Positions 426 to 4,757 of a stretch of 5,567 nt of DNA are shown one piece after another. Position numbers and translations under genes: made by a program. Position 1 is the first letter of the stretch. Each line of letters starts with the position of its first letter. The notes beneath the pieces were generated by a model. That model searched no databases. It saw only the letters and a program-made list of their open reading frames with translations, and was not told where the DNA came from. Origin of the DNA: a virus (lineage: Duplodnaviria > Heunggongvirae > Uroviricota > Caudoviricetes). Location of the stretch: the IMG/VR virus record IMGVR_UViG_2681813261_000015, one strand, 5' to 3'.

Positions 426-799
426 TGCGCCATGAGTTTATTTTACCTTATCCGCCGACGGTGAATACTTACTGGCGACGTCGTGACAACACATATTTTG
501 TATCAAAAGCCGGTGAGCGTTATCGCCGGGATGTGGCGCTTATTGTCCGTCAGCAGCGACTGAAATTAAGCCTGTCCGGAAGACTGGCGATAAAGATTAT
601 TGCAGAGCCACCGGATAAGCGCCGTCGTGACCTGGACAATATCCTGAAAGCACCACTGGATGCACTGACACATGCGGGAGTGTTAATGGACGATGAGCAG
701 TTTGATGAAATCAATATCGTTCGTGGTCAGCCAGTATCTGGTGGACGTCTGGGGGTGAAGATTTACCCCATAATGCATGAAGAGCAGGTCAAAAAATGA
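425..799 (+). CDS. rusA: crossover junction endodeoxyribonuclease RusA (Holliday junction resolvase)
   Basis: 124-aa product carrying LPYPPTVNTYW, RRRDLDN and DALTHAG...DDEQ motifs, which match the RusA family as I recall E. coli RusA (..LPWPPSNNRYY.., ..[20 protein letters not shown]..). Stop TGA 797-799 overlaps the Q start ATG 796-798. Confidence 0.9.
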   Translation: MRHEFILPYPPTVNTYWRRRDNTYFVSKAGERYRRDVALIVRQQRLKLSLSGRLAIKIIAEPPDKRRRDLDNILKAPLDALTHAGVLMDDEQFDEINIVRGQPVSGGRLGVKIYPIMHEEQVKK

Positions 800-1617
800 A
801 ACTGGAAGATTTACCGAAATACTACTCCCCAAAATCCCCTTGCCTGACCGATGCATCGGCCTCAACGTCAAAAGATGCGCTGAGTATCACTGATGTGATG
901 GCCGCGCAGGGCATGACACAGAATCGGGCTGAGATGGGGTTTTCTGCGTTCCTGGGGAAAATGGGCATCAGTATGAATGACAGGGCGCGGGCAACAGAAT
1001 TACTGGCAGATTATGCACTCAGTCGGTGCGATCGTGTGGCGGCGTTGAGAAAACTTCCGGCAGAAATAAAACCGGTAGTGATGCGCATTATGGCTTCGTA
1101 CGCTTTTGAGGATTATGCCCGCAGCGCAGCGAGTAAAAAGCAGTGCCCTTGTTGCTATGGGGAAAAATTTATTGAAAGCGTAGTTTTTACAAACAAGGTC
1201 CAGTATCCGGATGGTAAGCCGCCGGTATGGGCAAAGTGTACGAAAGGTGTGTATCCGTCTTACTGGGAAGAATGGAAAAAAGTCAGGGAGGTGGTAAAAG
1301 TTGCCTGTCCGGAGTGTGGCGGAAAGGGTGAGGTTTCCACCGCCTGTAAGGATTGCCGTGGGCGTGGTGTCGCCATTCATCGTGAAGAGTCGGTAAAACG
1401 TGGTATGCCTGTTATCAGAGACTGCCAGCGTTGTGGTGGTCGTGGCTATGAAAGACTACCATCAACGGAGGCATTTAATGCTATATGCGAGGTGACAAAC
1501 CAGATAACACGCGCGTCATGGGAAAAAACAGTTAAGAAATTTTATGATGCGCTGGTGACCCGGTTTGATATTGAAGAAGCATGGGCTGAGCGGCAGTTAA
1601 AAAAGGTAACTAGGTAA
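796..1617 (+). CDS. Q: late-gene antitermination protein Q (lambda Q family, enlarged variant)
   Basis: 273-aa product. The N-terminal half aligns with lambda Q as recalled (MKLEDLPKYYSPKSP...SITDVMAAQGM... versus MRLESVAKFHSPKSP...SGTDVMAAMGM...), and the C-terminus carries the conserved ...LYDALV.. region. Four CxxC pairs are present (CPCC, CPEC, CKDC, CQRC). It sits directly upstream of a pR'-like promoter. Confidence 0.88.
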   Translation: MKLEDLPKYYSPKSPCLTDASASTSKDALSITDVMAAQGMTQNRAEMGFSAFLGKMGISMNDRARATELLADYALSRCDRVAALRKLPAEIKPVVMRIMASYAFEDYARSAASKKQCPCCYGEKFIESVVFTNKVQYPDGKPPVWAKCTKGVYPSYWEEWKKVREVVKVACPECGGKGEVSTACKDCRGRGVAIHREESVKRGMPVIRDCQRCGGRGYERLPSTEAFNAICEVTNQITRASWEKTVKKFYDALVTRFDIEEAWAERQLKKVTR

Positions 1618-1622
1618 CAAGG

Positions 1623-1662
1623 TTGATTTTTCCGGAATCTGTGGTAAATTCGTCATAACGAT
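1623..1662 (+). promoter_or_regulatory. late promoter pR'-like with sigma70-dependent pause element (candidate Q-utilisation region)
   Basis: -35 TTGATT (1623-1628), 16-nt spacer, -10 TAAATT (1645-1650), 6 nt, then the -10-like AACGAT (1657-1662). The -10 hexamer, the spacing to AACGAT and the AACGAT element itself match lambda pR' as I recall it (TAAATT-TGACTC-AACGAT). Lies immediately downstream of Q. Confidence 0.6.
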
Positions 1663-1697
1663 GGGCGTTTTATGCCTGACGTTAGAAGAGTTTCTAC

Positions 1698-1723
1698 AAC
1701 CCGCCGCCGAGCGGGTTTTTTAT
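1698..1723 (+). terminator. Rho-independent terminator (tR'-like, ends a short pR' leader transcript)
   Basis: Stem CCCGC (1700-1704) / GCGGG (1711-1715) with 6-nt loop, extended by two A-U pairs, followed by TTTTTTAT (1716-1723). Lies about 65 nt downstream of the predicted pR' start. Confidence 0.6.
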
Positions 1724-1841
1724 GACTGAAATCGCGTCAGTACAGTAAACGCGCTGGTGGCGGTGAATACCTGTCTTTCAGCTTGCTGGCTTTTTCGACA
1801 AGAGTTATTGGTGTGTCACGTTAACCGGAAAAGGAAAAGAC

Positions 1842-2039
1842 ATGCTAAAACAGCAGGATATGACAGAAACCGCCAGAGTGGTGTTTAATGAATTAAGCGT
1901 TACCGAACCGGCGACAGTCGGGGAGATAGCGCAGAATACTTACCTTTCACGCGAACGCTGCCAGTTAATACTGACCCAGCTGGTTATGGCGGGTCTGGCA
2001 GACTATCAGTTCGGTTGTTACAGACGCCTTCCGCAGTGA
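1842..2039 (+). CDS. small hypothetical protein, possible winged-helix/HTH DNA-binding protein
   Basis: 65-aa ORF with ATG at 1842 and SD AAGGA (1832-1836) 5 nt upstream. The segment ...PATVGEIAQNTYLSRERCQLILTQLVMAGLA.. resembles a helix-turn-helix. The stop codon sits inside a terminator stem. Confidence 0.5.
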   Translation: MLKQQDMTETARVVFNELSVTEPATVGEIAQNTYLSRERCQLILTQLVMAGLADYQFGCYRRLPQ

Positions 2040-2053
2040 AGGCTTTTTTATTT
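2026..2053 (+). terminator. Rho-independent terminator
   Basis: Stem GCCTTC (2026-2031) / GAAGGC (2038-2043) with 6-nt loop, followed by TTTTTTATTT (2044-2053). Overlaps the stop codon of ORF 1842..2039. Confidence 0.6.
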
Positions 2054-2066
2054 GTGGTAAATGGGC

Positions 2067-2097
2067 GGCTGGTGGGTGTTAGGGGCACCCACCAGCC
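2067..2097. repeat. perfect 12-bp inverted repeat (stable hairpin or protein-binding palindrome) in the leader of the methyltransferase gene
   Basis: GGCTGGTGGGTG (2067-2078), 7-nt loop TTAGGGG, CACCCACCAGCC (2086-2097). All 12 pairs are Watson-Crick. No U-tract follows. Confidence 0.5.
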
Positions 2098-2189
2098 ATC
2101 TGCTCATGCGTTGGGTTCACAAGCAAACCTCAGGCCCACTGCTTTGCGCAAAAGCAGAATGAGCCTATCAGAGACAGGCTTAATGATCC

Positions 2190-3248
2190 ATGCTTAATAC
2201 TGTAAAAATATCCAGTTGTGAGTTAATCAACGCCGACTGCCTGGAATTTATCCGGTCGTTACCCGAAAATTCTGTTGACCTGATAGTCACGGACCCGCCG
2301 TACTTTAAAGTGAAGCCTGAGGGCTGGGATAACCAGTGGAAGGGCGACGATGATTACCTGAAGTGGCTGGACCAGTGTCTGGCGCAGTTCTGGCGGGTGC
2401 TGAAACCTGCCGGAAGTCTTTACCTGTTCTGTGGTCATCGCCTGGCATCTGATATCGAAATCATGATGCGTGAACGCTTCAGTGTGCTGAACCATATTAT
2501 CTGGGCGAAGCCGTCCGGACGCTGGAACGGATGCAACAAGGAAAGCCTGCGGGCGTATTTCCCCGCCACAGAGCGCATTCTGTTCGCGGAACATTATCAG
2601 GGGCCGTATCGTCCGAAAGATGCCGGGTATGCGGCGAAGGGCAGTGCACTGAAACAGCATGTGATGGCCCCGCTGATTTCTTACTTTCGTGATGCGCGAG
2701 CTGCCCTGGGGATAACGGCAAAACAGATTGCAGATGCCACAGGAAAGAAAAACATGGTGTCGCACTGGTTCAGTGCCGGTCAGTGGCAGTTGCCGAATGA
2801 AAGCGATTATCTGAAATTACAGGCGCTGTTTGCCCGGGTGGCAGAAGAGAAGCATCGGCGTGGTGAACTGGAAAAGCTCCACCACCAGCTGGTGGATACG
2901 TATACCTCACTGAACCGGCAGTATGCGGAGCTGCTGAGTGAATATAAACATCTGCGGCGGTATTTTGGCGTGACGGTGCAGGTGCCGTATACCGATGTGT
3001 GGACGCATAAACCGGTGCAGTTCTATCCCGGGAAACATCCGTGCGAAAAACCGGCAGAAATGCTGCAGCAGATAATCAGCGCTAGCAGTCGTCCGGGTGA
3101 CCTGATTGCAGATTTTTTCATGGGGTTGGGTTCGACAGTGAAAGCGGCACTGGCGCTCGGGCGTCGTGCAATTGGCGTTGAGCTGGAGACTGAACGTTTT
3201 GAGCAGACGGTTCGGGAAGTACAGGATTTAGTCAGCCAGAACGGATGA
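2190..3248 (+). CDS. DNA methyltransferase, beta-class (N6-adenine/N4-cytosine family; DPPY motif suggests N6-adenine)
   Basis: 352-aa product with catalytic motif IV (VTDPPYF) near the N-terminus and AdoMet motif I (DFFMGLGST) near the C-terminus, i.e. the circularly permuted beta-class order. A ~150-aa central insert contains an HTH-like segment (ITAKQIADATGK) and is probably the target-recognition domain. No restriction endonuclease gene is adjacent. Confidence 0.88.
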   Translation: MLNTVKISSCELINADCLEFIRSLPENSVDLIVTDPPYFKVKPEGWDNQWKGDDDYLKWLDQCLAQFWRVLKPAGSLYLFCGHRLASDIEIMMRERFSVLNHIIWAKPSGRWNGCNKESLRAYFPATERILFAEHYQGPYRPKDAGYAAKGSALKQHVMAPLISYFRDARAALGITAKQIADATGKKNMVSHWFSAGQWQLPNESDYLKLQALFARVAEEKHRRGELEKLHHQLVDTYTSLNRQYAELLSEYKHLRRYFGVTVQVPYTDVWTHKPVQFYPGKHPCEKPAEMLQQIISASSRPGDLIADFFMGLGSTVKAALALGRRAIGVELETERFEQTVREVQDLVSQNG

Positions 3249-3288: not shown

Positions 3289-3364
3289 GGCCCTTTAGCT
3301 CAGTGGTGAGAGCGAGCGACTCATAATCGCCAGGTCGCTGGTTCAAATCCAGCAAGGGCCACCA
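3289..3364 (+). tRNA. ileZ: tRNA-Ile2 (anticodon CAU, ileX/ileZ-like; formally Met by anticodon)
   Basis: Hand-folded cloverleaf: acceptor GGCCCTT/AAGGGCC, D-stem GCTC/GAGC, anticodon loop CTCATAA, T-arm GCTGG-TTCAAAT-CCAGC, encoded CCA. Near-identical in layout to E. coli tRNA-Ile2 as recalled. Symbol assigned from the Q-tRNA gene order known from Stx phages. Confidence 0.85.
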
Positions 3365-3371
3365 TCACATA

Positions 3372-3448
3372 CCGCCATTAGCTCATCAGGAAAGAGCGCC
3401 AGCCTTCGAAGCTGGCTGCGCGGGGTTCAAGTCCCCGATGGCGGTCCA
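3372..3448 (+). tRNA. argN: tRNA-Arg (anticodon UCG)
   Basis: Hand-folded cloverleaf: acceptor CCGCCAT/ATGGCGG, D-stem GCTC/GAGC, anticodon stem CCAGC/GCTGG with loop CTTCGAA, T-arm CGGGG-TTCAAGT-CCCCG, encoded CCA. Symbol assigned by gene order only. Confidence 0.8.
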
Positions 3449-3461
3449 TTATCTGCATCAT

Positions 3462-3538
3462 GCGTTGTTAGCTCAGCCGGACAGAGCAATTGCCTTCTAA
3501 GCAATCGGTCACTGGTTCGAATCCAGTACAGCGCGCCA
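3462..3538 (+). tRNA. argO: tRNA-Arg (anticodon UCU, decodes rare AGA)
   Basis: Hand-folded cloverleaf: acceptor GCGTTGT/ACAGCGC (one G-U pair), D-stem GCTC/GAGC, anticodon stem ATTGC/GCAAT with loop CTTCTAA, T-arm ACTGG-TTCGAAT-CCAGT, encoded CCA. Symbol assigned by gene order only. Confidence 0.8.
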
Positions 3539-4002: not shown

Positions 4003-4322
4003 ATACATATCTGGATTATCACCTGTTACGGTAAAAAGTGATTGCTTACTGTTTTTGTGAATGGCATTGCAGCAGCCGGATAATGTCAGTGCTGGCTGAC
4101 GGTGTGCTGGTGGCGGGTGTGGTGGTTGTTGCTTTCCCGTTGCTGAAAAAGAAAACGCCAGACTGTTAGCCGGGTATCAGTTAGCGGGAGAAATTTTTAA
4201 ATACTTCACAATTCAGGCGGTTGACTGTTGTCTGGTTTGCGGGGAGTTTGTTAAAAGAAACTGGCATGGTGAATCCCCCTGTGCGGAGGGGCAATCAGCG
4301 AGTAGGTATATGGGATAATCGC

Positions 4323-4420
4323 GGATTCAGGTGCTGGTACTGAATTCACCGGGAGGCACCCGGCATCATGCAATGGCACATAGCGCCACTCTCCAGCCCT
4401 CTCCGGAGGGGCTTTTCTGT
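4323..4420 (+). ncRNA. candidate small structured RNA, unit A of a tandem paralogous array
   Basis: Hairpin 1 at 4323-4347 (8-bp stem with one G-U, 9-nt loop); hairpin 2 at 4349-4363 (CCGGG/CCCGG); terminator stem-loop CCCTC-TCCG-GAGGG at 4397-4410 followed by CTTTTCTGT. An extended -10-like element TGgGATAAT (4311-4319) would place the transcript start near 4326. No ORF of 60 aa or more overlaps. Confidence 0.35.
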
Positions 4421-4547
4421 GCCGGATACATCACAGTTTCTGGAACCTTAGGTACTACAGTATCAGTCAGGGTGCTATATTTTCAGATGTGATGAAAGCC
4501 TGTCAGCAGGCAGGGCGTATCGGAAATGACCCAGTAGAGAAAACGTT

Positions 4548-4635
4548 GACTCAGATACCGGTGCTGAGTTACCGGGAAACCGGCATCACATGACCGCTAT
4601 CCTTCCAGGCCCATCCGCTCCGGTGGGCCTTTTTA
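4548..4635 (+). ncRNA. candidate small structured RNA, unit B (paralogue of unit A)
   Basis: Hairpin 1' at 4548-4570 (7-bp stem, 9-nt loop); hairpin 2' CCGG-GAAA-CCGG at 4572-4583 (GNRA tetraloop); strong terminator GGCCCA...TGGGCC at 4608-4629 followed by TTTTTACTG. The arms align with unit A and show one compensatory base-pair change (T-A in A, C-G in B). No clear promoter upstream. Confidence 0.35.
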
Positions 4636-4676
4636 CTGCAGAAAACAGGTTCCCCGTTAAATGCTATGTTGCTCAC

Positions 4677-4757
4677 AATTCAGNNNNNNNNNNNNNNNNN
4701 NNNNNNNNNNNNNNNNNNNNCCCTCTCCGGAGGGGCTGTTTATATTGATTTTGTCAG
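4677..4757 (+). ncRNA. candidate unit C of the same array, core masked by N-run
   Basis: Starts with AATTCAG (4677-4683), the same left arm as hairpin 1 of unit A. It is preceded by an extended -10-like TGcTATGTT (4662-4670). After the Ns comes CCCTCTCCGGAGGGGC (4721-4736), identical to the unit A terminator hairpin, followed by a T-rich tail. Confidence 0.25.
4684..4720. other. run of 37 ambiguous bases (N); masked or unresolved sequence
   Basis: Literal n characters in the input. Falls inside the repeat array, consistent with an assembly gap or collapse caused by the repeats. Confidence 0.95.

Follow-up and report, generated by a model that had tools for sequence, protein, structure and literature searches.

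The closest described relatives of the element considered here are the Q-dependent late promoters (PR') of phage lambda, of Qin-type prophages and of Shiga toxin (Stx) phages. Lambda PR' reads TTGACT, 17 nucleotides (nt), TAAATT, TGACTC, AACGAT, GGG, where AACGAT is the pause element; one base ahead of that element is a -35-like TTGACT, which serves the repositioned region 4 of sigma, and the lambda PR' RNA is about 194 nt long. The repositioning of sigma region 4 is described in PMC9388147, as are the DNA-contacting zinc-ribbon "arm" of lambda Q and the RNA-exit-channel nozzle formed by its N-terminal residues. A pause consensus, TNYG, is available (PMC9191641), and in 933W-type Stx phages the 3' end lies 258 nt downstream of PR' (PMC7547250). 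Here we analyse a 5,567-nt stretch of viral DNA (IMG/VR virus record IMGVR_UViG_2681813261_000015; "the window", always meaning the whole stretch), which is the late-regulatory region of a lambdoid Escherichia coli prophage. We put the probability at roughly 80% that it holds a Q-dependent late-gene switch of the lambda-Q type. Such a switch is ordinary, very common and of a well-understood kind; the less expected parts are an adjoining conserved RNA leader and a small winged-helix gene.

The predicted switch consists of the following features:

796-1617, plus strand: Q antiterminator gene, lambda-Q family, 273 amino acids (aa), matching PF03589 and PDB 7UBM
1623-1650, plus strand: PR'-like promoter, with -35 TTGATT (1623-1628), a 16-nt spacer (1629-1644) and -10 TAAATT (1645-1650)
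1657-1662, plus strand: pause element AACGAT at predicted +1 to +6, followed by GGG and separated from the -10 by the gap CGTCAT (1651-1656)
1657-1722, plus strand: predicted short leader transcript from PR', about 65 nt, equivalent to the 6S RNA of lambda
1698-1723, plus strand: terminator 1 (tR'), with stem 1698-1704/1711-1717 and T-run 1716-1721

The Q antiterminator

The gene upstream of PR' is, as judged by homology, a genuine lambda-family Q. Its product matches PF03589 with an E-value of 6.2e-55 (183.7 bits against a cut-off of 26.7) and the solved lambda Q structures (PDB 7UBM) with an E-value of 1.5e-40, and over its full length it can be aligned to lambda Q, with 31% identity. The N-terminal 44 residues, which make up the nozzle in lambda, are well conserved relative to lambda Q, and the stop codon lies 6 nt ahead of the -35.

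Compared with lambda Q, the protein has a 68-aa zinc-ribbon insertion (residues 114-181) which brings two additional CxxC pairs and falls within the arm. To survey relatives, we took one genome per species, which gave 16 loci with Q relatives 40-99% identical to the window Q (tblastn); the distant ones, at 43-49% identity in a MAFFT alignment, come from seven genera (Atlantibacter, Mangrovibacter, Scandinavium, Kosakonia, Phytobacter, Buttiauxella and Entomohabitans). All Q-family relatives examined have the extra zinc ribbon, so lambda Q, with its single zinc finger, is the short outlier of its own family. The zinc region with its insertion resembles the central domain of DnaJ.

The predicted promoter and pause element

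The original prediction, made by reading the sequence of the window, was that TAAATT, 6 nt, AACGAT is the lambda PR' architecture. This is borne out by lambda itself, which reads TAAATT-TGACTC-AACGAT-GGG, and all sequence features lie where the prediction had placed them. The string TAAATT-N6-AACGATGGG is identical between the window and lambda, and the window has a single TAAATT-N6-AACGAT, compared with 0.04 expected from shuffles when one mismatch is allowed. The promoter spacer also has a TG at 1642-1643 (-15/-14).

Conservation points the same way. The register of -10, 6 nt and AAYGATRGG is kept in 17 loci as well as in lambda, and past the Q stop the relatives have a -35, 17 nt, a -10 (TAnnnT), 6 nt, AACGAT or AATGAT, and G/A-GG, locus L013 being the sole exception. 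Within the close clade of eight relatives, the variable columns number 0/6 in the -35, 1/16 in the spacer, 0/6 in the -10 and 1/6 in AACGAT (a C/T change), whereas the gap that separates the -10 from AACGAT has 4/6 variable columns and the upstream sequence 20/55. This suggests constraint on the promoter, a protein-binding spacer and the pause element. By homology, the candidate promoter of the window is a lambda-type PR' with the lambda pause element. TATG at +15 to +18 (1671-1674) fits TNYG, which would place the pause at about +17.

The predicted short leader RNA and terminator 1

Terminator 1 is a 7-bp GC-rich stem with a T6 run, at +42 to +65 (-11.2 kcal/mol, z -2.6). Assuming a start at 1657, the leader RNA would be about 64-67 nt long, and its fold has an energy of -21.4 kcal/mol (z -2.2). 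The original prediction called this terminator unusually close to the promoter, which is true only in comparison with lambda or with the 258 nt of 933W. Behind the relatives in the window's own Q subfamily, a leader of 56-73 nt followed by a GC hairpin and T-run is the rule, so a terminator at +65 is normal for this subfamily, and lambda, at about 194 nt, is the outlier.

A conserved 5' hairpin in the PR' leader RNA was predicted and set aside as weak: its changes are one-sided only, with no compensatory pair. A search of 1600-2260 against Rfam returned nothing at threshold (isrK reached 16.2 bits against a cut-off of 50), and we took isrK, Trp_leader (21.8 bits against 41) and P26 (24.2 against 36, on the opposite strand) as chance matches.

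The small winged-helix gene and its leader

Beyond terminator 1 lies a small open reading frame (ORF) with a leader of its own:

1782-1818, plus strand: conserved core of the small-ORF leader, CTTGCTGG ... AGAGTTATTGGTGTGTCA, with 1782-1789 and 1801-1818 almost invariant
1842-2039, plus strand: gene for a 65-aa winged-helix protein (phrog_331; NCBI name "TrmB family"), identified by constraint, homologues and AlphaFold

The pattern of substitution and the range of homologues indicate that the small ORF is a real and strongly constrained gene. Its ratio of non-synonymous to synonymous substitution (dN/dS) is 0.04-0.15 where computable; between genera, dN is 0.04-0.14 and synonymous sites are saturated. 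Of 334 homologues, the best 120 have identities of 81% or more and come from Escherichia, Shigella, Salmonella, Klebsiella, Citrobacter and Buttiauxella. The suggestion that the product is helix-turn-helix-like agrees with its AlphaFold model, which has a pLDDT (predicted local distance difference test) of 89.7 and the topology H-H-H-E-E, i.e., three helices and two strands. The best structural matches of the model are the winged helix-turn-helix domains of IclR, MarR, SelB and O-methyltransferases (N-terminal), with template-modelling scores up to 0.84. We are therefore confident that the modelled fold is a winged helix-turn-helix. The protein stays below Pfam thresholds (TrmB 18.0 bits against 25.6, MarR_2 14.7 against 27), and no NCBIfam model matches it; in PHROGs it belongs to phrog_331. 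Neither the small ORF nor its adjoining leader turned up in literature searches, which used protein accessions and sequence strings.

The small ORF is present behind all three Q families, and its steady partner is the methylase gene that follows it, since the ORF lies upstream in at least 109 of the 123 methylase-leader copies. On this evidence of co-occurrence, the small ORF belongs to the methylase cassette and not to the window's Q. In relatives the pairing can be altered: in PA11 (L010, 2146-3193) the small ORF is frameshifted and a 237-aa helix-turn-helix protein replaces the methylase, and in the Citrobacter-like contigs L032-L034 a 110-aa ORF stands between the small ORF and the methylase.

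Among 59 unique contexts, 51 place a T-run hairpin ahead of the small ORF, and these hairpins have 31 different sequences; such a hairpin precedes the small-ORF leader, with a differing sequence, behind every Q-type gene seen. Since the position is conserved while the hairpin sequence turns over, this is good evidence that a terminator would be required ahead of the leader. The leader core is itself nearly invariant across 24 representative contexts from five genera and persists in L007, which has a TerB-family gene in place of the ORF. Three explanations for this core were tried, and none is convincing. As a promoter it is below consensus (6/12) and is not called by the scan; as an RNA structure hiding the start codon it has a fold z of only -0.38, with one compensatory case and several broken ones; and as an operator it has no second copy in the window.

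Terminator 2 and the methylase leader

The small ORF runs into a second terminator, which is followed by the methylase and its leader:

2026-2053, plus strand: terminator 2, with GCCTTC (2026-2031), a loop (2032-2037), GAAGGC (2038-2043) and the T-run TTTTTTATTT (2044-2053)
2054-2189, plus strand: structured leader of the methylase, identified by fold and covariation, including a 12-bp hairpin (2067-2097) of two inverted Chi octamers
2190-3248, plus strand: gene for a beta-class N6-adenine DNA methyltransferase of the M.EcoGII family (PF01555, E-value 8e-42)

The methylase is 95% identical to that of phage 1720a-02, and its motifs are in beta-class order (DPPY at residues 35-38, and FMGLG, an FxGxG motif, at 310-314). 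The 1720a-02 enzyme is very similar to M.EcoGII, a non-specific adenine methylase which is silent in the lysogen and harmful if constitutively expressed (PMC5778455). The window enzyme is, by homology, a close relative of M.EcoGII and a putative non-specific adenine methylase.

Terminator 2 has a 6-bp stem with 4 GC pairs followed by T6AT3. The original prediction had the stop of the small ORF inside this terminator, and the TGA at 2037-2039 does span the boundary between loop and stem. It had also described a second clean terminator after the ORF, and this stands in part: the hairpin and the T6AT3 tail are there, but the hairpin is at the same time the first helix of the methylase leader, and only the E. 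coli/Shigella clade has the clean T6 tail, other relatives reading YTTYCTGCTGTG. Lenient terminator criteria are met by 25 of 27 unique contexts at this site, and the stem has compensatory changes at all four counted pairs across 20 sequences.

To place the hairpin in its wider context, we collected the sequences upstream of the methylase (123 copies, 79 of them unique, with 19 representatives below 93% identity). In these leaders the hairpin always stands ahead of the motif TGTG(A/G)AAATGGGCGG. It is kept despite a different upstream gene in L032, L051, L076, L102 and L120, and in L066 and L107/L020 tR' itself stands in for it. As judged by conservation and covariation, the terminator 2 hairpin is thus the first helix of a conserved, covarying methylase leader of about 150 nt.

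The leader folds with a z of -3.8 against shuffles. Its consensus has six helices, with 96.7% of cells paired compared with 24-43% when the partners are slid, and its covariation score is 0.136, against 0.070 in shuffles, with 0/500 shuffles reaching 0.136. One internal pair is AU in 9 sequences, CG in 7 and UA in 4, and is broken in none. The leader is more conserved than the adjoining coding sequence, and its covarying structure is found over six genera: the stretch 2026-2189 is conserved in prophages of Escherichia, Salmonella, Klebsiella, Citrobacter, Kosakonia and Buttiauxella. No Rfam family matches it, and the methylase start lacks an obvious Shine-Dalgarno sequence.

Two further candidates in the leader were rejected. 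A second PR' copy at 2054-2068, where GTGGTAAATGGGCG resembles 1641-1668, reads GTGGTAATGG or GTGAAAATGG in relatives, and its would-be -10 lacks the final T. A leader peptide ORF at 2061-2162 has in-frame stops after 13-16 codons in relatives.

Mosaic structure

Compared across relatives, the predicted late region is a mosaic of three modules: Q with PR' and tR'; the small ORF with its conserved leader; and the methylase with its structured leader, of which terminator 2 is the first helix. In phage mEp460 and in L011, the same Q, promoter and terminator 1 are joined straight to tRNA genes, while in Kosakonia (L020) tR' is joined straight to the methylase leader. The small-ORF cassette is absent from all three and stands behind five types of Q gene. 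The small ORF and methylase are also found behind the Q-like gene of phiP27, a gene for a DUF1133 protein (EDL933), a 250-aa antiterminator (EC24), a 123-aa "antiterminator Q family" protein (PA11), and Q proteins of PF06323 and PF06530 (Klebsiella and Citrobacter-like contigs).

Proposed mechanism and alternative explanations

With a lambda-type switch, the locus would work as follows. The promoter at 1623-1650 would fire constitutively from a start near 1657, and sigma70 would then re-bind the -10-like AACGAT (+1 to +6), holding polymerase at about +16 to +18 as its identity with lambda implies. Without Q, transcription would stop at 1698-1721, releasing an RNA of about 65 nt and leaving everything downstream silent in the lysogen. 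After induction, Q would bind between the -35 and -10 hexamers and load onto the paused polymerase, and the modified polymerase would pass terminator 1, terminator 2 and later terminators, carrying transcription from the winged-helix gene through the M.EcoGII-type methylase, the tRNAs and the cargo to the lysis genes. The original prediction counted two successive readthrough points. This is an undercount, because more terminator-like sites lie on the same strand before the lysis region (at 4395, 4607 and 4721), and Q-modified polymerase would therefore have to pass more than two. The window as a whole has 15 terminator-like sites, against 5.6 +/- 2.8 in shuffles. A pair of terminators and a structured leader ahead of a toxic methylase could plausibly act as a double lock that ensures tight silencing.

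Several points weigh against a Q-dependent switch of this kind. The promoter hexamers match consensus at 8/12 positions where the scan threshold is 9/12, so the promoter was not called, and its credibility would have to come from homology and conservation, not from hexamer quality. The spacer, which is the candidate Q-binding element, is unlike that of lambda and is 16 nt long instead of 17. The -35-like TTGACT near the pause element is not kept, the window having TCGTCA (3/6) and relatives TTGCCC or TTGCTC (3-4/6) at that position, and the TNYG motif is displaced downstream by one base relative to lambda. Terminator 2 has only a modest fold (-8.9 kcal/mol, z -1.4), and its T-run is interrupted outside the E. 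coli clade. Finally, start site, pause position and terminator efficiency are all predictions for the window.

An alternative which we regard as possible, if short of even odds, is that the 2026-2043 hairpin serves chiefly as the opening stem of a cis-regulatory methylase leader RNA, acting on translation, stability or attenuation, and is not a dedicated second gate; its terminator character would then be an addition specific to the E. coli lineage. This fits the way the hairpin precedes the methylase leader regardless of the upstream gene, with tR' replacing it in L066 and L107, as well as the conserved covarying structure of the leader with its AU/CG/UA pair, a fold far beyond that of shuffles, and a methylase start with no obvious Shine-Dalgarno. 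On the other hand, T6-A-T3 behind the hairpin is a canonical terminator tail in the window, nearly all of the unique contexts remain terminator-like under lenient criteria, most of the leader helices are invariant and so say nothing about pairing either way, and the leader has no Rfam family. The bolder proposal, that 2026-2189 is a previously undescribed cis-regulatory RNA which, possibly together with the 65-aa protein, holds a toxic non-specific adenine methyltransferase off until late lytic growth, we consider unlikely.

The small ORF could instead be an autonomous moron, expressed in the prophage independently of Q from a weak or regulated promoter in its leader at 1782-1818. Terminator 1 would then insulate the cassette on its upstream side and terminator 2 would stop the transcript before the methylase, an arrangement that is compatible with Q readthrough during lytic growth. 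The cassette does have the shape of a moron, lying between terminators and being present or absent independently of its neighbours, and its leader has a promoter-like geometry (TTGCTG, 17 nt, TATYNG, with a G at -14 and CA 7 nt downstream) in a core that is nearly invariant across genera and survives in L007 although the ORF there is replaced. But that geometry amounts to 6/12 consensus with an invariant G at the critical -7 T position, the scan calls nothing in the leader, and a constitutive promoter would risk reading into the toxic methylase wherever the T-run past the ORF is poor, as it is outside the E. coli clade. We are accordingly doubtful of a moron, and more doubtful still that the prophage is defective and the switch a relic of inherited but inoperative parts. 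Many lambdoid prophages of E. coli are cryptic, the window contains a masked run of N, and relatives show decay, with the small ORF frameshifted in PA11 and the T-run shortened in Qin-type L023 and L024. Against this very improbable outcome, the window has an intact Q, small ORF and methylase, its promoter, pause element and terminator are perfectly preserved, and near-identical cassettes occur in inducible phages (mEp460 and Stx2 phages).

Surrounding genes and distribution

The lambda-type switch sits in the gene order RusA resolvase, Q antiterminator, small ORF, DNA methylase, three tRNA genes and cargo, of which the outer members are:

425-799: RusA resolvase gene
3289-3538, plus strand: three tRNA genes (CAU, UCG and UCU anticodons), like those that precede stx in Stx phages

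Phage Stx2_EH1910 has a matching gene order, with stx2AB placed beyond the same tRNA trio; in that place, the window has a 117-aa protein (phrog_2873). The tRNA gene with the CAU anticodon (3289-3364) is tRNA-Met according to ARAGORN and tRNA-Ile (ileZ type) in several related records.

Beyond the tRNA genes lie the cargo, which has an STnc100-type small RNA, and a DUF1737 gene of a type that stands ahead of lysis genes. An STnc100-family small RNA matches in full within 4235-4424 (122 bits), and a weak second copy (30 bits) lies at 4463-4636. A masked N-run (4684-4720) interrupts the cargo region and makes features there unreadable; directly past it, 4721-4734 is a third terminator with the same sequence (CCCTCTCCGGAGGGG). 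The stretch 4235-4734 looks like tandem prophage small-RNA genes, each with its own terminator.

The region is widespread. Positions 1500-2200 are 99.7% identical to E. coli strain TOE17, and 1053 of 5426 complete E. coli genomes hold at least 80% of this stretch. The 108-nt PR'-leader-tR' segment (1618-1725) occurs in 2439 of the 5426, at up to 4 copies per genome, and in the 12 records listed there is no annotated feature beneath the match.

The Chi octamer GCTGGTGG has 7 copies in the 5.6 kb, against 0.21 expected from shuffles. Five (350, 1753, 2068, 2888 and 4106, plus strand) are oriented along late transcription, and two (2089-2096 and 2882-2889) are on the minus strand. They include two inverted pairs: one supplies both arms of the 2067-2097 hairpin, and the other makes the CCACCAGCTGGTGG palindrome within the methylase gene. 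The copy at 1753 lies just 3' of where homology to phages with other Q types starts. Chi was rejected as the conserved feature of the 2067-2097 hairpin, since Salmonella keeps the hairpin through compensatory changes and loses the octamer. The Chi cluster, the methylase leader RNA and the conserved small-ORF leader are more novel than the late switch.

Comparison with known systems

The window methylase resembles M.EcoGII and M.EcoGI (PMC5778455) in its near identity to the 1720a-02 enzyme, its DPPY and FxGxG motifs and its location on a prophage, and it too is expected to be silent in the lysogen. PMC5778455 makes no mention of the small ORF, the leader or the terminators.

The Qin-type QuuQ cassettes of E. 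coli and related enterobacteria (L014-L025) share the Q subfamily with its enlarged zinc arm, the register of -10, 6 nt and AACGATGGG, and a short leader ending in a GC hairpin and T-run. Their Q proteins are about 43-47% identical to the window Q and their downstream cargo is different. Their spacer (ATTCAAAAAAAYTGG) resembles that of lambda, at 13 of 17 positions in a hand alignment, and not that of the window.

The PR'-tR'/StxS arrangement of Stx phages (933W, Sakai Sp5/Sp15; PMC7547250) is alike in having a constitutive late promoter, an early stop at tR' in lysogens that yields a short RNA, and Q-dependent toxin or cargo genes and tRNAs downstream. Indeed, Stx2_EH1910 carries the window's very cassette upstream of stx2, and the PR'-leader-tR' segment thus controls Shiga toxin 2 in some phages. 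StxS, an Hfq-binding RNA that acts in trans, is 258 nt long before processing, and the predicted 65-nt RNA of the window is unrelated to it in sequence. If the short leader RNA does act like StxS, or if the methylase leader is regulatory, these would be very widespread unrecognised regulators.

Lambda Q/PR'/qut/tR' is matched in the Q family, in the -10 TAAATT, the 6-nt gap and AACGAT with GGG at +1 to +9, in the intrinsic terminator, and in the position of the cassette past rusA/nin-type genes and ahead of the lysis genes. The window departs from lambda in its shorter leader (about 65 nt against about 194 nt), in a 16-nt spacer of unrelated sequence, which implies a different candidate Q-binding element, in the extra 68-aa zinc ribbon of its Q, in the lack of the -35-like TTGACT by the pause element, in the one-base shift of TNYG, and in the winged-helix gene, methylase, tRNAs and cargo inserted ahead of the lysis genes. 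As a late-gene switch the locus offers little that is new, the lambda Q mechanism being textbook knowledge, but the comparison makes the long 6S leader and single zinc finger of lambda the exception within its own Q family.

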